Shown here: piece after piece, positions 5,107 to 45,278 of the stretch | Layout of the letters: each line of letters opens with the position of its first letter | How positions within the stretch are numbered: the first letter of the stretch is position 1 | Assembly: GCA_046094425.1 (NCBI GenBank) | Contig: JBJTHI010000158.1 | Coordinates: forward strand, 1-62,835 | Origin: Burkholderiales bacterium | GTDB taxonomy: Bacteria > Pseudomonadota > Gammaproteobacteria > Burkholderiales > Burkholderiaceae_C | DNA: 62,835 bases | Direction: 5' to 3' | Translations under genes and position numbers: made by a program | The notes under the pieces: model-generated | Told to the model about the DNA's origin: nothing | Seen by the model: the letters and a program-made list of their open reading frames with translations, nothing else | Databases searched by the model: none

Positions 5107-5148
5107 CCTCTCCAGCGAGCGGTTCTTGCAAAGTCGATTTGCAAAATA

Positions 5149-5166
5149 GATACAGAAATCTGTATC
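5149..5166 (+). promoter_or_regulatory. putative VapB operator (7-bp inverted repeat GATACAG-aaat-CTGTATC) within the vapBC promoter
   Basis: Perfect inverted repeat 9 nt upstream of the vapB ATG, preceded by a duplicated TTGCAAA (5126..5146) that could supply a -35. Confidence 0.4.
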
Positions 5167-5174
5167 ATGCCGCC

Positions 5175-5420
5175 ATGAAGACCACCCTGGACTTGAACGA
5201 CCAACTCCTTGCTGATGCCAAGGCGCTTGCGGCGCAGCAGCGAACCAGTCTCACCCGTCTGATTGAGGAGGCTTTGCAGCTTCGTTTGCGCGCCAAGGCG
5301 GAGTCTCCCAAGCGCGGTCGCGTTCGATTGCCTGTCTTCAAGGGGCGCGGTGGGCTCGCAACGGGGGTGAACCCACTGAGCAACAAAGCACTACTTCAGG
5401 CCCTTGGCGATGACGCCTGA
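5175..5420 (+). CDS. vapB: type II antitoxin, VapB family (ribbon-helix-helix/DUF2191-like)
   Basis: MKTTLDLNDQLLADAKALAAQQRTSLTRLIEEAL is a typical VapB N-terminus. The gene overlaps the PIN toxin gene. Confidence 0.8.
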   Translation: MKTTLDLNDQLLADAKALAAQQRTSLTRLIEEALQLRLRAKAESPKRGRVRLPVFKGRGGLATGVNPLSNKALLQALGDDA

Positions 5421-5847
5421 CGTGAATGTGCTGGTCGCTGCTTCGCGCGTTGACCATCCACATCATGCGGTGGCCTTGGATTGGCTGGAGGAGGCACTGG
5501 CCACGTCTGGCACCGGCGCAAGTTTCACGCTCTTGCCCATGGTGCTGGCCAGTTTTCTTCGGCTCGTCACCAGCCCGAAGATATTCCAGACCGCAACGCC
5601 GATTGAAGACGCCATTGCGTTTGTCGATGCGCTGTTGGCTTCTCCTCGCGTGCAACTGGCGCAGCTCGGGCCCGAGTGGCCCATCCTTCGCAAGCTGTGC
5701 TTGGACAAGAAGCTCGGGGGAAACGATGTACCGGATGCTTGGTTGTCGGCCGCAGTCACGCAGTTGGGTGAGCACCTGGTGACTTTTGATCGGGATTTCA
5801 GGAAACTGCTCGCTCGCAATCGTTTCACGCTACTCGAACCGGCATAG
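5410..5847 (+). CDS. vapC: type II toxin, VapC family PIN-domain ribonuclease
   Basis: MTPDVNVLVAA...D-x-W...LVTFDRDFRKL places the PIN acidic residues in the expected positions. The gene overlaps vapB by 11 nt. Confidence 0.85.
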   Translation: MTPDVNVLVAASRVDHPHHAVALDWLEEALATSGTGASFTLLPMVLASFLRLVTSPKIFQTATPIEDAIAFVDALLASPRVQLAQLGPEWPILRKLCLDKKLGGNDVPDAWLSAAVTQLGEHLVTFDRDFRKLLARNRFTLLEPA

Positions 5848-5894: not shown

Positions 5895-6911
5895 CTAAAC
5901 CCGCACACTCTCCACCATATCCGCCACGGCAGCCGTCATGTTGATGGGCACCAAATCCAGTCCCGGTGTTTGGGCGCGCATCACACGAAAGAGTTCGTCG
6001 GCAAAACTGTGGCCGACTTCTTTCACGTCTTTGAAGTCCACCTCGGCACGCTTGAATAAATTTAAACGTGAGGCCACACGGCGTGCTTGAGCGCGTGATT
6101 CCAAGCCCAATTGGCTGGTGGTGAGCAAACGCAGGGGCACCACGGTGCGCTCAAAACCCAGGGTTTGGCCGCTGAGGCTGTACTGGCGCATCACGGCGTC
6201 GAGGGTGAGGGGAGTGTCCAGCGCAAAGGCGGCGTAAATCGAGGTGCCTTGGCGCTTCAGGGCGCGACCGGGTGTCCAGCCGCGTGCGTCCCAGCCCCGG
6301 TGTTGGAAGGCCAGTTCATTGGCATGCAAATCAAATACGTCGGCCAGTTTGGAGGTGAAGAACAGGCCGCGACCGGTGTGCTGCTGTGGCGCAGACGTGA
6401 GTTTGCCTTTGCTCAACTCCAGCATGGCCAAGGCGGGGTCGTCCAGCGAAAAGGCCTCGTGAACTTTGTTGAACAGGCCACGCCCGTCGTCCGACACCAA
6501 AAGCTGCACGTGCGAGGGTGTTTGGCGCAGCGACACCGTCACTTGCGTGCCTTCGCTGTGGTCAATGGCGTTGTTCAGCAGCTCGCTGAAGGCGTGCTGC
6601 GCAATGCGCTGCACATTGGCGGGCAGGTTGAAGTAGGGCGCAAAGTCGCGCGCCCAGGGCACGTCTTCCGACAGTCCGGCAATCGAATAGCGCTGCACCA
6701 CTTGGCGCAACAAACCGGGTTTGTACTGGGCGCGGCGCGACACGCCGTCGCGGAGCAGCCATTGGCCCTGCACCAGTTTTTGCAACACCTTGCTGGCCGT
6801 GCTGCGTGAGCAGTTCAGCCGCTCTGTGATGATGCGTGGCAACTCCTGCGGGTGATCCACTGCAGCAGCGGCAATCCACAGGGTGATGGAATTGAAATCA
6901 ATGCGAGCCAT
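5895..6911 (-). CDS. fused winged-HTH / GHKL (HATPase_c, RsbW-SpoIIAB-like) ATPase / STAS-like (DUF4325-type) protein
   Basis: The N-terminal wHTH is ITERLNCSRSTASKVLQKLVQGQWLLRDG. The GHKL boxes are N box ELLNNAIDHS, G1 DDGRG and G2 HTGRGLFF. The C-terminal part reads AEVDFKDVKEVGHSFADELFRV, as in DUF4325/STAS-like modules. Confidence 0.7.
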   Translation of the reverse strand: MARIDFNSITLWIAAAAVDHPQELPRIITERLNCSRSTASKVLQKLVQGQWLLRDGVSRRAQYKPGLLRQVVQRYSIAGLSEDVPWARDFAPYFNLPANVQRIAQHAFSELLNNAIDHSEGTQVTVSLRQTPSHVQLLVSDDGRGLFNKVHEAFSLDDPALAMLELSKGKLTSAPQQHTGRGLFFTSKLADVFDLHANELAFQHRGWDARGWTPGRALKRQGTSIYAAFALDTPLTLDAVMRQYSLSGQTLGFERTVVPLRLLTTSQLGLESRAQARRVASRLNLFKRAEVDFKDVKEVGHSFADELFRVMRAQTPGLDLVPINMTAAVADMVESVRV

Positions 6912-7052: not shown

Positions 7053-8255
7053 TCAAAAAAAGCCGCCCTGCTTGCCCCCGCATTCGAGCGGCACTTGTTT
7101 GCTGCTCAACTCAAAGCTGTGCTCGCAAGCCCAAGAGATTTTTCCGCCACCCACGTCGCTGGGCGTCAATATCAGCTCTCCGTGCGGCGTTATCACGGTG
7201 AGTGTCATGTTGTCGGTGTCCAGCTCCAGGGTGGAGCCGTCGGGCTGCTCGGGTTTGATGCCCACCTCTTTCAATGAGTCGGGCACGGTTTGGGTTTTGG
7301 CATAGTGCGCGGCCAGTGCATCGCGCGCTGTTTTGGCGTTCTCGTAAGCCAATGCGACTTCAGCGCGCACTTTGTAGTCTTGATAAGCAGGGATGGCCAG
7401 GGCGGCCAAAATGCCAATGATGGCCACCACAATCAGTGGGCCGAATGAGCCACTGAGCCGGCCCACATTGGGCACAAAAGCGGCAAACAAAAACGCCCAT
7501 TTGCTTCGCGCAGGCATGACAACGTCTGGGTTGAGCACACGCTGCACCCGTTTGCTTGTCCACGGGTAACCGCTGGTGAGCTCGTGGTAGGACATCCAGA
7601 ACCCGCTGCTGCTTTTGACTTGCTCGCCAAAGGCGTGGAGGTTGATGGTGCGCCAGCGCTTCTCACCCGCCGCAATGGCCGACAGCGCGTGTGCCGCATG
7701 CTGAGGCGAGGTGCTGCATGCAGCACCATGCCGATCGCAAGTGGACTCCTGCGCACGCTCATAAGCCGCGCCAAGCAAGGGAATCCACAGGGCAGGCCAA
7801 CGCCAAAACCCACCCATGAAGTGTTTCATGCGGATGTGGCCCAACTCGTGGCCAATGTAAAAGTTCACGCCGTCGGGGTGGTCTTCCAAGGCATCGACCA
7901 CATTGGAGAGCAAGAGCACATAGTGGCGGCCCAAAAAGCGGGTGGCGAAGGCGTTGAACATGCCGTCGCCCATGAGCACATAGGCTTCGGGTTTTTCAGA
8001 CATGCCGAGCCTGTCGCAGCAGGCTTCAAAACGCTGGTACAGGTCGGGGAACTGGGCGGCACTCAAGGCCACGCCATTGCCCTTGACGTAAGCGATCAAG
8101 GCCGACTGGGCAAACAGATAAATGACAAAAACGAAGAGTAAATAAATCAGCGTGAGGCCGAAGGTGCCCAACACCAGCAGGGCCCAAAACAGCAGCCCCA
8201 GTACGAGAGTGATTCTGCCGAGCGAGCGCTCGCGGGGGTAAACCAATGCGTCCAT
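7053..8255 (-). CDS. M48-family zinc metallopeptidase fused to a C-terminal type IV pilin-like domain
   Basis: Two N-terminal TM helices are followed by HELGH at codons 136-140. From about codon 271 the sequence reads GPLIVVAIIGILAALAIPAYQDYKVRAEVA..., a pilin alpha1 helix without the G|F(T/S)LIE prepilin cleavage motif. It ends with W-x-C...P-x-x-C (Cys377/Cys392), a pilin-like disulfide loop. Confidence 0.75.
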   Translation of the reverse strand: MDALVYPRERSLGRITLVLGLLFWALLVLGTFGLTLIYLLFVFVIYLFAQSALIAYVKGNGVALSAAQFPDLYQRFEACCDRLGMSEKPEAYVLMGDGMFNAFATRFLGRHYVLLLSNVVDALEDHPDGVNFYIGHELGHIRMKHFMGGFWRWPALWIPLLGAAYERAQESTCDRHGAACSTSPQHAAHALSAIAAGEKRWRTINLHAFGEQVKSSSGFWMSYHELTSGYPWTSKRVQRVLNPDVVMPARSKWAFLFAAFVPNVGRLSGSFGPLIVVAIIGILAALAIPAYQDYKVRAEVALAYENAKTARDALAAHYAKTQTVPDSLKEVGIKPEQPDGSTLELDTDNMTLTVITPHGELILTPSDVGGGKISWACEHSFELSSKQVPLECGGKQGGFF

Positions 8256-8525
8256 ACATCCTCCTTGTGGTGAGCCGGCGCGGCCACTTTCTGTGTTTTC
8301 TGTGGGGCGGCATGATACGTGCGGCGCGTGCCAACTTGCGTCACCTTGTGCACCACCCCCGAGAACCGGGGGTGGCGTGGCAGTGCAATCGTTAATGCGC
8401 GGTTACCAAGCGCCACTCAAGCCCGCCCCGCCGCTAAAATTGCCGCAGTTACGGCCTTGGTACGGCCGCGCGGCCACCCAGGTTGCGCCCACCCCCTTTA
8501 TTAACTTCCACCCACAGGTGTTCCT

Positions 8526-9590
8526 ATGCCACTCGTCTCCATGCGCCAATTGCTCGACCATGCTGCTGAAAACGGCTATGGCATTCCGGCCTACAACGTC
8601 AACAACCTGGAGCAAGTTCAGGCGGTGATGGCGGCTGCCGATGAAGTGGGTTCGCCCGTGATTCTTCAAGCCAGCGCCGGGGCCCGCAAATACGCGGGCG
8701 AGGCCTTCATCAAACACCTGATTTCGGCGGCCATTGAAAGCTACCCCCACATTCCCTTGGTCATGCACCAAGACCACGGCCAAAGCCCTGATGTGTGCAA
8801 AGGGGCTATCGATCTCGGTTTCAGCTCGGTGATGATGGACGGTTCGCTGCAAGCCGACGGCAAAACCATTGCCAGCTTTGAATACAACGTGGATGTGACC
8901 CGCAAAGTGGTGGACATGGCCCACGCCTTGGGCGTGACGGTGGAAGGTGAACTCGGCTGCCTGGGTTCTTTGGAAACCATGAAAGGCGACAAAGAAGACG
9001 GCCACGGCACCGAAGCCACCATGACCATGGACCAGTTGCTCACCGACCCCGAAGAAGCTGCCGAGTTTGTGAAGCGCACCCAGTTGGACGCCTTGGCCAT
9101 TGCCATTGGCACCAGCCATGGCGCCTACAAATTCACCCGCAAGCCCACCGGGGACATCTTGGCCATCAGTCGCATCAAAGAAATTCACCGCCGCATTCCC
9201 AACACCCATTTGGTGATGCACGGCTCCAGCAGCGTGCCACAGAACCTGCTCGAAGAAATTCGCAAATACGGCGGCAACATGAAAGAAACCTATGGCGTGC
9301 CCGTGGCGGAGATTCAAGAAGCCATCAAACACGGCGTGCGCAAAATCAACATTGACACCGACATTCGTTTGGCCATGACGGGAGCGATCCGCAAGTTTTT
9401 CGTCGAGAACCCAGAGAAGTTCGACCCCCGCGAATACCTCAAGCCCGCCCGTGAAGCCGCCAAAGGCATTTGCAAACAGCGTTACTTGGAGTTCAACTGC
9501 GAAGGCCAAGCCGCCAAGATCAAACCGCAAACTTTGGTGCAGGTGTCGCAGCGTTATGCCAAGGGCGAGTTGGCGCAGACGGTGAATTAA
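8526..9590 (+). CDS. fba: class II fructose-bisphosphate aldolase
   Basis: 354 aa, with [27 protein letters not shown]...HGSSS motifs. Confidence 0.95.
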
Positions 9591-9652
9591 AGGGGCTGCG
9601 AGCGGCTTCGAGCGCAACGCACCGGAGGCTGGCGTTGATTGAGGCGAACCGC

Positions 9653-41015: not shown

Positions 41016-44000
41016 ATGCAAGGCCAACTTTTCACCCAAGACTTTTTGCTGCACGGCATACGCCACACGCCGCCCTACCAAAACCTGGATGACAAAGTCT
41101 TTGCCCACTTTGAGCAAGCACTCGCGCAGCTCACCCAAAACCTGCGCGCTGATTCGGTGCTGAACGAAGCCCAAACCGAGCAAGCCCTGATTCATCCGCT
41201 GCTGAATTTGCTTGGTTGGGGAAGCGACTACTTGCCGCAAGTGAACATGTCGGCCAAAGGCCGCGAAGATGTGCCGGACTTGCTGCTGTTTCGCAGCCCC
41301 GAGGCGCTGCAAAAAGCACGCGAAGAAAACCGCGACGACCAGCGCTACCGCCACGGCCTCACCATCCTGGAAGCCAAACGTTGGCTGCGTCCGCTGGATC
41401 GAGGTGATGCCAGCGAGGCCACCGATCCCGGTGCCCCCTCCTCACAAATGCTGCGCTACCTGAGCCGTGCCGAAGTGGTGAGTGACCGCGCGGTGAAGTG
41501 GGGCATGCTTACCAACGGCGGGGTGTGGCGGCTGTATTACCAAGACGCACGTTCGCGCGCCGAGCATTTTTTCGAGATCGACTTGGCCTTTGTGCTGGCG
41601 CTGTCGGGTATTCAAACCGATCTGACCGATGCTCAAAGCGAGGCTGAACCGCAGCACCAGCTCAAACTCTTCTACTTGCTCTTTTGCCGCGATGCGTTTT
41701 TGCCGCAACCTTGGGACAGCGCGGAGCGGAGCTTTCACGCTTACGCACTGAACGAAGCCCGCCTCTATGAAGAAAAAGTCTCGCAAGACTTGGGTGTGCG
41801 CGTCTTCACCGAGATTTTTCCGCGCCTGGCCCAAGCCCTGGCCGAAGGCGATTTGCAAGCGCAAAAAGAAAAACGCGGCGTCGGTCAATTTGCGCGTTTT
41901 CACTACACCCGTCCTTACTTGGACGAAGTGCGTGAATCCGCCCTGGTGTTTTTGTACCGCCTGCTGTTCCTCTTTTACGCCGAAGACCGCCACTTGCTGC
42001 CCGTGCGCGACGAGCGCTACCGCGCCTACAGCCTGCGCCGCTTGCGCGAGCAGGTGCGGGACGACGTGGATCAGCGTAAGGTGTTCTCCAGCCGCGTCGA
42101 TCATATTTGGCGCGCCTTGCAAGGCGTGTTCTTGCTGATTGACAGAGGCGACGATGCCGTCGGCATGCCTGCCTACAACGGCGGCCTGTTCGACCGCGCC
42201 CGCGCCCCGCTGCTGGAGCGCACCCGCGTGCCCGACGCGGTGATGGCCCCCATCATCGACGCGCTGTCGCGCCGCACCGAAGACCTGCTGCACGCCTGGA
42301 TCAACTACCGCGACCTGTCGGTGTCGCACCTGGGCGGCATTTACGAACGCTTGCTCGAATACACCCTGGTGCATGAGGTGCAGGCCGAAGACGACTACCA
42401 CGACAAACCCGAGGTCAACCGCATCAGCGCAGAGCCCGCCAGTTTTGCACGCAAGGTGTCGGGCAGCTATTACACCCACGACGACTTGGTGCGGCTGGTG
42501 CTGCGCGAGTCGGTGGGCCTGCTGGCGCAAGAGCGCAAAGATGCATTCAGCCAGCAACTGAGCAAGTACAAAAAGAAGCCATCACTCAACCCCAGTGATT
42601 GGGATGTGCTGGACAAGCTAGACCCCGCCAGCAACATCTTGGAGCTCAAGGTGTGCGACCCCGCCATGGGCAGCGGTCATTTTCTGGTCGCGTTGGTGGA
42701 CTATTTGGCCGACCGCGTGTTAGAGGCCATCAACACCGCCGAAGTGGCCGTGGCCGAGCAGCCCTGGTCTGCACACTTGGTGGAGCAGGGCCGCCCTTGG
42801 CAAAGCCCGGTGGTGGGCCGCATTGCCCTTATTCGGCAAACCATCAGAAAAACCGCCCAGCAACACGGTTGGGCCGTGACGGATGCGCAACTCGACGACC
42901 GCCACATCGTGCGCCGCATGATTTTGAAAAAAACCATCTTCGGCGTGGATAAAAACCCCATGGCCGTGGAACTGGCGAAAACCGCGCTGTGGCTGCACAC
43001 CTTCACCGTGGGCGCGCCCTTGAGTTTTCTCGACCACCACTTGAAAGTGGGCGACTCCCTGCATGGCGAGCGCCTGCCCGTGGTGCGCCGTGCGCTGGAC
43101 GGCTTGGGCATGCTCTTCCAACAAGGCGAGTTGGAGCGCCTGGCCCTGGCCGCGAGAAATTTAGAACAAGTGGCCGACTTCACCGATGTGGACATGGCCC
43201 AGGCCCAGTTGTCCAAGAAGCTGGCCGAGGATGCAGCAGCGCAGTTGGCCCCCTTGCACGCCCTGCTCGACTTTTGGCGCGCCCTGCGCTGGCTGGTGCC
43301 AGGCTGGCCGGTCGATTCCGGCAAAAAGCTCGCCAAACTCGGCGACGATGCATTACGCCTGGCCCTGGCCGAATTGTTCTCGCCTGCCCGTAACCTGGTG
43401 GCCACCTTGGAGACCGGACGCGTCGAGGGCCAAGGTGCCGCCGTGGAAGCGGCCAATGCGCTGTTGTCGCGCACACGCGAATTGGCCCAGCGAGAAGACT
43501 TTTTTCATTGGTGGACAGCCTTTCCCACGGTCTTCAAAGGGGGCGATGGCCAAGGTGGTTTTGATGCGGTGATAGGCAACCCGCCCTGGGATCGCATCAA
43601 ACTGCAAGAGGTGGAATGGTTTGCCGAGCGCGAACCGAAGGTGGCTTTGCAAGCACGCGCCGCAGACCGAAAGAAACTCATTCTTGAATTGCAAAAGAAA
43701 AACGCACCCGTGGCCTTGCAATATGCGCAGGCCACCGAGCGCGCCGAGGCCAACGCCCGCGTCTTGAGCAAAGCGGGCGACTACCCGCTGCTGGGCGGTG
43801 GCGATGTGAACCTTTACAGCCTCTTCGTGGAGCGCGCTCAGGGGTTGATTTCCCCGAATGGGTTGGTGGCCTTGCTCACCCCCAGCGGCATTGCGGCTGA
43901 CAAAGGGGCTGCCGAGTTTTTCCGCAGCATCTCCACCACGGGGCGACTTGGAGCTTTGTTTGATTTTGAAAACCGCAACAACCCTGATGGCAGTTTTTTC

Positions 44001-45278
44001 CCCGATGTGGACTCGCGCTTCAAGTTCAGCGTGATGTTATTCGGCGGTGCACAGAGACAGTTTGAACGTTGCCGCTGCGCGTTCTACTTGAACGACATTG
44101 AGCAGACCTCAGATGCCGAGCGCGTACTCAATTTAACCGCCCGAGACTTCGCCCTGGTCAACCCCAACACCGGTGCAGCCCCCATCTTCAGAAGCCGGCG
44201 CGATGCGGACATCACCACGCGCATCTATCGCAGCAACCCGGTGCTTGTGCGTCATGCCGAAGTTCAAACGGGCAAATCCTCGGAGCACAAGCTGTGGTCT
44301 GTGAAATACCTGCGCATGTTCGACATGACCAACGACTCGCATTTGTTCTTGACGCGGGCTGAGTTGGAAAAACAAGGTTTTGTGGCGGCGGGATTGAACC
44401 GATGGCGACGAGGCGACGAAGAAGCCGTGCCGCTGTACGAAGGCAAGATGGTGCAATTGTTTGACCACCGCGCAGCCGATGTGGTGATACATGCCGAGAA
44501 CTTGCATCGTGCAGCGCAACCCGAGCCGATTCAGTCCGCCATGAAAGAACAGGCGGATCGCTACCCCGTTGCGCAGTTTTATGTGCCTTCACAAGAAACA
44601 CGGGCGAACCGTTTCCCGTGGGCGCTGGGTTTCAAGGAAATTTCTGCGCCCACCAACGCGCGTACCATGATTGCTTCCATCGTTCCAGGGGTTGGTTTTG
44701 GCAACAAGCTGCCTCTGCTGGTGCCGCAGGTGGAAGATGCGAGAGAAGCCGCGCGCATGGTGGCTTTGCTTTGCGCCACGTTGAACAGCTTGGCTTTCGA
44801 CTTTGTGCTCAGGCAAAAGCTGCAAGGCCAGACCATTAACTTATTCATCCTCGAACAACTACCCGCCATCGCCCCCGACCGCTTTGACCAACCCCTGCCT
44901 ACTGCTTTCACCATGCGCATGCGCCAAGCGGGTTTGATGAATGGCCACCATGCCAACCCCAGCGTGGCCGACTTTGTAATTCCCCAGGTGTTGGCCCTGT
45001 CCTACACCGCACACGATCTGGCCCCCTTTGCGAAAGACTTGGGTTATGTGAACGAGGACGGTAGCGTCAAACCGCCGGTTGTTTGGAACGAAGAAGAACG
45101 CTGCGCGCGCATGAATGCCTTGGACGCGCTCTTCATGCATCTCTACGGTTTGAATGCCGACGATGCGGCGTATGTGATGGACACCTTCCCCATCGTGCGC
45201 CAGCAAGACGTGGCGGCGTTTGGGCACTACCGGACGCAGGCAGAGGTGCTGCGGCTCTTGGCTTTGATGGTGGATTGA
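41016..45278 (+). CDS. 1420-aa fused PD-(D/E)XK nuclease / gamma-class N6-adenine DNA methyltransferase / specificity region (type IIG, MmeI-PglX-like restriction-modification enzyme)
   Basis: The N-terminus has PD88...E119-A-K121 (nt 41277, 41370..41378), and a YNGGLF motif lies at codons 387-392. The SAM motif I VCDPAMGSGHF starts at codon 546 (nt 42651), FGVDKNPMAVELAK follows, and the catalytic NPPW is at codons 855-858 (nt 43578..43589). A long C-terminal region (YEGKMVQLFDHR, LNSLAFDFVLRQK) resembles the target-recognition parts of this family. No Walker A/helicase motif was seen. Confidence 0.75.
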   Translation: MQGQLFTQDFLLHGIRHTPPYQNLDDKVFAHFEQALAQLTQNLRADSVLNEAQTEQALIHPLLNLLGWGSDYLPQVNMSAKGREDVPDLLLFRSPEALQKAREENRDDQRYRHGLTILEAKRWLRPLDRGDASEATDPGAPSSQMLRYLSRAEVVSDRAVKWGMLTNGGVWRLYYQDARSRAEHFFEIDLAFVLALSGIQTDLTDAQSEAEPQHQLKLFYLLFCRDAFLPQPWDSAERSFHAYALNEARLYEEKVSQDLGVRVFTEIFPRLAQALAEGDLQAQKEKRGVGQFARFHYTRPYLDEVRESALVFLYRLLFLFYAEDRHLLPVRDERYRAYSLRRLREQVRDDVDQRKVFSSRVDHIWRALQGVFLLIDRGDDAVGMPAYNGGLFDRARAPLLERTRVPDAVMAPIIDALSRRTEDLLHAWINYRDLSVSHLGGIYERLLEYTLVHEVQAEDDYHDKPEVNRISAEPASFARKVSGSYYTHDDLVRLVLRESVGLLAQERKDAFSQQLSKYKKKPSLNPSDWDVLDKLDPASNILELKVCDPAMGSGHFLVALVDYLADRVLEAINTAEVAVAEQPWSAHLVEQGRPWQSPVVGRIALIRQTIRKTAQQHGWAVTDAQLDDRHIVRRMILKKTIFGVDKNPMAVELAKTALWLHTFTVGAPLSFLDHHLKVGDSLHGERLPVVRRALDGLGMLFQQGELERLALAARNLEQVADFTDVDMAQAQLSKKLAEDAAAQLAPLHALLDFWRALRWLVPGWPVDSGKKLAKLGDDALRLALAELFSPARNLVATLETGRVEGQGAAVEAANALLSRTRELAQREDFFHWWTAFPTVFKGGDGQGGFDAVIGNPPWDRIKLQEVEWFAEREPKVALQARAADRKKLILELQKKNAPVALQYAQATERAEANARVLSKAGDYPLLGGGDVNLYSLFVERAQGLISPNGLVALLTPSGIAADKGAAEFFRSISTTGRLGALFDFENRNNPDGSFFPDVDSRFKFSVMLFGGAQRQFERCRCAFYLNDIEQTSDAERVLNLTARDFALVNPNTGAAPIFRSRRDADITTRIYRSNPVLVRHAEVQTGKSSEHKLWSVKYLRMFDMTNDSHLFLTRAELEKQGFVAAGLNRWRRGDEEAVPLYEGKMVQLFDHRAADVVIHAENLHRAAQPEPIQSAMKEQADRYPVAQFYVPSQETRANRFPWALGFKEISAPTNARTMIASIVPGVGFGNKLPLLVPQVEDAREAARMVALLCATLNSLAFDFVLRQKLQGQTINLFILEQLPAIAPDRFDQPLPTAFTMRMRQAGLMNGHHANPSVADFVIPQVLALSYTAHDLAPFAKDLGYVNEDGSVKPPVVWNEEERCARMNALDALFMHLYGLNADDAAYVMDTFPIVRQQDVAAFGHYRTQAEVLRLLALMVD

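Follow-up and report, generated by a model that had tools for sequence, protein, structure and literature searches.

An M48 metalloprotease fused to a type IV pilin module without the prepilin processing motif in a Burkholderiales bacterium

The locus and its gene

We analyzed a 62,835-nucleotide stretch of DNA from a Burkholderiales bacterium (contig JBJTHI010000158.1 of assembly GCA_046094425.1), referred to here as the window. The window is ordinary Burkholderiales chromosome. The gene under study has pyk on one side and fba on the other, and pgk, purC, purK, lptD, and surA are nearby. An earlier reading of the sequence (the original prediction) had described the product of this gene as a membrane zinc protease of family M48 with the motif HELGH, continued at the C terminus by a type IV pilin-like helix and head from which the prepilin cleavage site is missing. 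Our analysis supports this structural reading, in that the gene was found to be an open reading frame (ORF), just as quoted there, for a single, conserved M48-pilin fusion; the original prediction as a whole, which extended to possible roles, is partly supported. The features of the fusion are collected in Table 1. The AlphaFold2 model used throughout was built on a diverse 44-sequence alignment (mean predicted local distance difference test score, 94.2; predicted template modeling score, 0.83).

Table 1. Features of the M48-pilin fusion gene and its product (TM, transmembrane segment)
Feature	Residues	Position (nt)	Strand	Basis
Whole coding sequence of the M48-pilin fusion	400 amino acids plus stop	7053..8255	-	Full-length homologs, independent contigs
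N-terminal TM hairpin	14-57	8085..8216	-	Hydropathy, AlphaFold2 model
Parts of the hairpin: TM1; turn G30-T-F-G33; TM2	~15-30; 30-33; ~34-57	within 8085..8216	-	
M48 zinc-peptidase domain, predicted to be cytoplasmic	58-245	7521..8084	-	Pfam, weak HtpX matches, Foldseek
Zinc-binding/catalytic motif H136-E137-L-G-H140	136-140	7836..7850	-	Read in sequence, conservation
E170, predicted third zinc ligand, in the invariant motif R167-A-x-E170-x-T-C173-D174	170	7746..7748	-	Invariant in both alignments
Conserved juxtamembrane linker	246-272	7440..7520	-	Alignments, AlphaFold2 model
Pilin alpha1N, the third TM segment (pilin positions 6-28)	273-295	7371..7439	-	
Pilin alpha1C, amphipathic, periplasmic part of the long helix	296-325	7281..7370	-	Model, PilE alignment
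Pilin globular head: alpha-beta loop, sheet, C-terminal loop	326-393	7077..7280	-	
Cysteines predicted to close the C-terminal loop of the head	C377; C392	7125-7127; 7080-7082	-	

The original prediction had named a frameshift or misassembly joining two separate genes, around positions 7440 to 7480, as one result that would overturn it. This was ruled out, and the chance of such an artifact is negligible. A 9.1-kb freshwater metagenome contig (~30x) is identical across the whole gene. The junction between positions 7398 and 7741 is spanned also by contigs from a second run, from a related strain, and from an RNA-labeled run, the last two of which differ there by substitutions only, with no indels and no joints. 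Full-length homologs tell against such an artifact as well.

The protease domain

Pfam analysis of the N-terminal part revealed a Peptidase_M48 domain (PF01435; 57.2 bits against a cutoff of 20.3; E = 2.6e-15), by which the protein is assigned to peptidase family M48. Among 44 diverse members of the family, H136 and E170 never vary, and the conservation of E137 and H140 is 90% or higher. The role of E170 as a zinc ligand is predicted from the M48 family motif. Judged by its catalytic residues, the protein would be an intact, HtpX-like M48 zinc endopeptidase, and peptidase activity is predicted. Foldseek matched the protease part to BepA, ZMPSTE24, and 3c37, and weakly to the HtpX domain 3cqb.

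HtpX (MEROPS M48B), the inner-membrane heat-shock zinc protease of Escherichia coli, is a quality-control protease that acts on membrane proteins at the cytoplasmic face. Like the fusion, it has two N-terminal transmembrane segments, followed by HEXXH at an almost equal residue number and a downstream Glu ligand, and in both the active site would lie at the cytoplasmic face of the membrane. Unlike the fusion, HtpX has two transmembrane helices between HEXXH and the Glu ligand, where the fusion has only about 20 hydrophobic residues (146 to 165); the fusion, for its part, adds a conserved linker, a third transmembrane segment, and a periplasmic pilin domain. Against NCBIfam, only weak matches to HtpX and to pilin/GspG models were obtained, all far under their cutoffs; the HtpX models were the best matches of the protease part. 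The highest score against the HtpX equivalogs (NF002669, NF002826, and others) was 29.9 bits, with 341 needed, and the fusion protein is not an HtpX ortholog.

We also noted a pair of cysteines in the M48 domain, C80 (8016 to 8018) and C173 (7737 to 7739), both at least 90% conserved in the 44 diverse members. C173 stands three residues past the predicted ligand E170, and C79 and C180 likewise are invariant in the close family (31 homologs). In a cytoplasmic domain, the C80/C173 pair may mark a second metal site or act as a redox switch; should the predicted topology be wrong, it would be a disulfide.

The pilin module

The linker that follows the protease domain carries the motif P248-x-R250-x-x-[FL]-A254-[YF]-x-x-A258-x-F-x-P262, of which residues 252 to 258 form a short helix. 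Behind the motif, a Gly-rich stretch fills pilin positions -3 to +5. In this register, L267 is position -1, S268 is position +1, and G272, which is invariant in the close family, occupies the place of Glu5. About 267 residues precede the pilin helix, and there is no short leader ending in Gly at -1. From position 6 onward, the sequence is that of a pilin: alpha1N holds G281 and P289, which correspond to G14 and P22.

Searched against solved structures, residues 274 to 338 align to residues 7 to 71 of mature Neisseria PilE (E = 6e-8). A profile of the 31 homologs extends this alignment to residues 273 to 379 and pilin positions 6 to 123 (E = 9e-17). The C-terminal third of the model superposes on gonococcal pilin (2hi2) over 158 of 158 columns (Foldseek probability, 1.00; TM-score, 0.60), and the modeled head, of alpha/beta type, has four antiparallel strands (342 to 346, 351 to 356, 359 to 367, and 373 to 379) in a sheet packed on alpha1C. 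The two ends of the Cys loop that the original prediction gave as WAC...PLEC are present as W375-A-C377 and P389-L-E-C392, and W375, C377, P389, and C392 are invariant in all 31 homologs. The Pfam Pilin model (PF00114) scores below its cutoff in the window protein (18.5 versus 22 bits, residues 296 to 392); some relatives pass the cutoff, such as P0147, with 76 bits. In the close family, the protease core has a mean pairwise identity of 71%, against 60% in alpha1N and 46% in the head, which suggests a head that is less constrained than the protease, yet maintained.

The fusion thus shares with the type IVa major pilins (Neisseria PilE and Pseudomonas PilA) the alpha1 helix of about 53 residues, G14, P22, the AYQDY-type continuation, the four-strand head, W-x-C, and the C-terminal Cys pair. 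Unlike these pilins, it has no leader peptide, Gly-1, Phe1, or Glu5; the head is small, and the module is internal, being covalently tied to a protease with three transmembrane segments. It is a complete type IVa pilin module without the G/FTLIE processing motif, the absence of which had been pointed out in the original prediction. Because Gly-1, Phe1, and Glu5 are replaced, no canonical cleavage, methylation, membrane extraction, or polymerization of the module would be expected, and the protein is predicted not to be a functional type IV pilin. Pilin-like domains that stay in the membrane have a parallel in the archaeal proteins FlaF and FlaG, in which pilin/archaellin-like domains are held there by an uncleaved N-terminal helix as static machine components. 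FlaF and FlaG have no protease domain and belong to another domain of life and another filament system, so that the likeness is one of analogy only.

The G14...P22 motif, which is carried by 174 of 271 proteins, was used as the anchor for a position analysis. Family-wide, positions 7 to 30 follow the pilin consensus, and positions -3 to +5 are rich in Gly, Ala, and Ser. Glu or Asp stands at position 5 in none of 59 divergent representatives, and Gly at -1 is combined with Phe, Met, or Leu at +1 in only 2 of the 59. The replacement of G-1, F1, and E5 therefore indicates that the determinants of processing and polymerization were removed selectively and consistently.

These data also bear on the idea that the protein is a precursor. 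The Gly-rich linker would then be the site of cleavage, and the enzyme would be either the prepilin peptidase, acting at a non-canonical Gly, or the M48 domain of the protein itself. Such a cut would free a pilin-like protein or, acting as a switch, uncouple the protease from its anchor. In favor of this, genuine prepilins are cut by PilD at the cytoplasmic end of the helix, and it is there, at positions -3 to +5, that Gly, Ala, and Ser prevail. However, the G-1/F+1 register is all but missing in the 59 representatives, and a product that lacks E5 would be unable to assemble by the known mechanism. We regard this explanation as very improbable.

Membrane topology

Hydropathy analysis revealed only two long hydrophobic segments, residues 14 to 57 and 272 to 290. 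The AlphaFold2 model resolves the first as a hairpin (helices 7 to 30 and 34 to 60, with a break at 31 to 33), and the hairpin turn holds G30 and G33, which are invariant in the 31 close homologs. A first AlphaFold2 model, built on the 31 close sequences, had shown residues 7 to 60 as a single helix; this was dropped for the hairpin obtained from the diverse alignment. The model continues with an alpha/beta protease domain, the short helix in the linker (252 to 258), and a long helix (265 to 321), which is read as helices 265 to 306 and 308 to 321. A 20-residue hydrophobic segment of the M48 domain (146 to 165) sits between the zinc ligands. As H136/H140 and E170 are only 30 residues apart, the zinc site must lie on one side of the membrane, and segment 146 to 165 cannot cross it twice; a full membrane crossing by this segment is not possible. 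The net charge is +5 just ahead of the third transmembrane segment, with no net charge behind it. Pilin heads with a Cys pair are periplasmic.

Taken together, hydropathy, the distribution of charges, the geometry of the zinc ligands, and the Cys pair of the pilin head point strongly to the order N-in, TM1, TM2, cytoplasmic protease, pilin alpha1N as TM3, and periplasmic head. We infer that the pilin module is oriented as in an unprocessed prepilin, with the protease standing where the leader peptide would be. The reading of the pilin helix as an internal transmembrane anchor, with the head across the membrane from the protease, is supported.

Distribution and the wider family

Homologs of the fusion are numerous. 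A collection clustered at 90% identity contained 2,610, and the best 120 of these 2,610 cover 94 to 100% of the query at 54 to 92% identity; clustering at 50% left 314 representatives with E values of 1e-30 or lower. Relatives are encoded in at least 342 species-representative genomes. The 80 genome loci kept for analysis include Variovorax, Methylophilus, Marinobacter, Shewanella, Duganella, Massilia, Dyella, Desulfoluna, and Thiospirillum. The closest relative among the matches listed is that of a Rhizobacter metagenome-assembled genome (MAG), at 83% identity. For the Marinobacter and Variovorax orthologs and other homologs, the databases give only "M48 family metalloprotease" or double COG names. 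No description of the M48-pilin architecture was found in the full-text literature searched, and neither NCBIfam nor PADLOC has a dedicated model for it. This agrees with the statement of the original prediction that the architecture belongs to no characterized system.

What the original prediction had not seen is that the fusion is one branch of a larger family. Divergent members share the core (the two-segment hairpin, M48 domain, linker, and third transmembrane segment) and vary beyond it. The C-terminal part may be one pilin head, two tandem heads (P0147, P0258, and P0260), or an unrelated domain. In P0243, Sel1 repeats replace the head and the pilin-type helix is retained; in P0172 and P0252, the third transmembrane segment is not of pilin type. 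A recognizable pilin-type helix is present in about 40 of the 74 representatives with a complete core. We conclude that these proteins form a large M48 subfamily of their own with a variable periplasmic domain, of which the window protein is one branch.

The layout of the family recalls the signal-transducing proteases BlaR1 and MecR1 (M56), which likewise consist of a membrane-embedded cytoplasmic gluzincin, a last transmembrane helix, and an extracytoplasmic C-terminal domain. By analogy, the periplasmic domain, which varies from a pilin head or tandem heads to Sel1 repeats and others, would bind a periplasmic ligand or partner and activate the cytoplasmic zinc protease, which would cut a cytoplasmic regulator. 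The strongly conserved juxtamembrane linker could pass such a signal across. However, there was no Pfam M56 match at E values up to 1, and no BlaR1 among the Foldseek matches listed. Neither a repressor of the BlaI/MecI type nor any other conserved partner adjoins the gene in the 80 loci, and pilin heads and Sel1 repeats are protein-interaction modules, not known small-molecule sensors; the pilin head is also not a penicillin-binding domain. We consider a BlaR1-like sensor unlikely.

In some members, HEXXH residues are lost (the motif reads, e.g., RELAR, HGIAS, or HVLGR) from an otherwise conserved protein, and tandem pilin heads occur in two of these. These members may be pseudo-proteases with a scaffolding role.

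Distant relatives that consist of the M48 core only, with 27 to 33% identity over residues 35 to 242 and no pilin part, were found in Enterococcus phage Efs 1-1-1 (OR846598.1, 28427 to 29029) and in two large plasmids, one from Persicobacter and one from Tsukamurella. The protease core is thus far more widely distributed than the pilin fusion.

Clade-specific helix types

The type of pilin helix differs between members. That of the window protein is nearest to Neisseria PilE, that of P0233 to Myxococcus PilA (1.6e-17), and that of P0132 to the Geobacter pilin (2.5e-9); the helices of other members are GspG-like or resemble PVC-type pseudopilins. In a neighbor-joining tree of the M48 core, members of one helix type mostly group together, and a few fall elsewhere.

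Two orthologs from Desulfobacterota, those of Desulfoluna butyratoxydans (L026) and of a Desulfobacterales MAG (L027), are mosaics. In the M48 core and the distal head, both match the betaproteobacterial type of fusion (51 to 53% identical to the window protein). After P22, they read PQFSTYKVKAH and PQFQTYRIKSH, respectively, and the Geobacter pilin reads PQFSAYRVKAY. The best solved-structure match of L026 is the Geobacter pilin, with PilE unmatched, and the membrane part of its helix also lacks G14 and the A17-A18 pair. Pilin positions 22 to 35, just past the membrane, have been converted in both proteins to the pilin type of the host lineage. The conversion could reflect selection for matching or gene conversion and was probably a single event.

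Possible function

Our preferred explanation, which we hold tentatively, is that a non-polymerizable pilin mimic guides an HtpX-like protease to the pilins or pseudopilins of the inner membrane, or to the machinery of these proteins. Before assembly, pilins reside in the inner membrane with the topology predicted here, and E5 and the N terminus are needed for their assembly. The disabled pilin would serve as a targeting or recognition device. With its conserved helix and a head of the type of the host lineage, it would partition into, and pair with, the inner-membrane pool of pilins or pseudopilins; alternatively, the module might dock on the assembly platform. The HtpX-type active site would thereby be brought to the cytoplasmic face of the membrane beside the pilins. 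At this site, subunits or machinery of type IV filaments could be subjected to quality control or to regulatory cleavage by the protease, unprocessed or surplus prepilins being one example. We favor this explanation because the pilin helix is conserved far beyond the needs of an anchor, is retained when the head is replaced, and follows the pilin types of the lineages. Pilin quality control and regulation of the pilus or the type II secretion system (T2SS), two of the roles named in the original prediction, are plausible, with some support from the clade-specific helix types.

In a bolder form, which we find doubtful, the family would constitute an unrecognized class of regulators of pili and secretion systems. 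A mimic of the cell's own major pilin would sample or join the inner-membrane pool or the platform, its helix would coevolve with the resident pilin, and the protease would control type IV filament biogenesis. The fusion would then be the proteolytic counterpart of PilS-type sensing of membrane pilin.

Several observations weigh against guidance to pilins. A protease at the cytoplasmic face would find little to cut in mature pilins, hardly any part of which is exposed to the cytoplasm. Gene neighborhood lends no support, in that the fusion shows no linkage to genes for pili or the T2SS: a prepilin gene within about 8 kb was found in 0 of 86 loci, and there is none in the 62-kb window. There is also no conserved neighbor, as clustering across the 80 genome loci gave no gene family in more than 11. 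About half of the representatives at 50% identity have a degenerate or non-pilin third transmembrane segment, and the core function of the wider family is therefore not dependent on the pilin helix. HEXXH residues are lost in P0157, P0205, P0258, and P0260. Finally, the clade-specific helix types could stem from gene conversion with resident pilin genes and not from selection.

The principal rival explanation, which we judge to be on the unlikely side, is that of a generic, HtpX-like protease engaged in the quality control of membrane proteins. The pilin segment would then do no more than provide a convenient N-in/C-out signal anchor and a small, stable domain in the periplasm, which might aid stability or oligomerization, and there would be no specific link to pili or secretion. 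A gene that stands alone, in housekeeping contexts that differ by lineage and with no pilin genes near, is in keeping with this, as are the many members with a non-pilin third segment and unrelated C-terminal domains and the rank of the HtpX models as best NCBIfam matches. The HtpX scores are nevertheless far under the cutoff (30 versus 341 bits). A mere anchor, moreover, would not be expected to keep the pilin consensus at positions 7 to 30 through deep divergence, yet lose exactly G-1, F1, and E5, nor to switch to the pilin type of the host lineage.

Guidance of a protease to pilins would matter in that type IV pili and the T2SS are central to motility, adhesion, DNA uptake, secretion, and phage entry, and the policing of the inner-membrane pilin pool by cells is known in fragments only. 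The architecture suggests an unexplored link between membrane proteolysis and the subunits of pili and secretion systems. Thousands of sequences from several phyla conserve it, and the tractable genera Variovorax, Marinobacter, Shewanella, and Methylophilus are among those that carry it. Even without a link to pili, the proteins are a large, uncharacterized M48 subfamily with a modular periplasmic domain, in which the pilin fold is reused as a fixed membrane module.

Genomic neighborhood

The fusion gene has different neighbors in each lineage looked at (four contexts, metagenomic or genomic). No promoter, terminator, or Rfam signal at the locus rose above background, and neither the fusion nor its downstream neighbor had a match among the PADLOC defense models. 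The original prediction had also proposed a decoy or sensor for pilus-dependent phages; that role, or another in anti-phage defense, is suggested only by the presence of a pilin-like head and by a vapBC-like pair and a HATPase-DUF4325 gene that adjoin the fusion in the window. The head, however, would be tethered to the inner membrane by three transmembrane segments and not exposed at the surface. The neighbors are not conserved beyond close relatives, and the fusion was absent from the plasmids and phages searched, which yielded only the distant M48-only matches. We consider a role in phage defense highly improbable.

Directly downstream of the fusion gene, on the reverse strand (5895 to 6911), lies a gene for a 338-residue protein that combines a histidine-kinase-like ATPase domain with a STAS-like DUF4325 domain at the C terminus. 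The pair of fusion and HATPase-DUF4325 genes recurs in the Rhizobacter MAG (L001); relatives at greater distance do not show it. Between pyk and the fusion gene, the forward strand carries an overlapping toxin-antitoxin-like (vapBC-like) pair (5139 to 5847), which consists of a DUF6364 protein (93 residues) followed by a PIN-domain protein (147 residues). It belongs to the same small island, and in L001 a pair of this kind occurs as well.

On the other side of the fusion gene, a 404-residue ORF on the reverse strand (8403 to 9617) is antisense to the fructose-bisphosphate aldolase gene (8526 to 9590, forward strand); it looks like a spurious shadow ORF of high-GC DNA and not a gene. Farther along the window, a 1,420-residue ORF on the forward strand (41016 to 45278) contains an Eco57I-type restriction-modification methylase domain and probably encodes a fused type IIG/IIL restriction-modification enzyme or a related defense enzyme.

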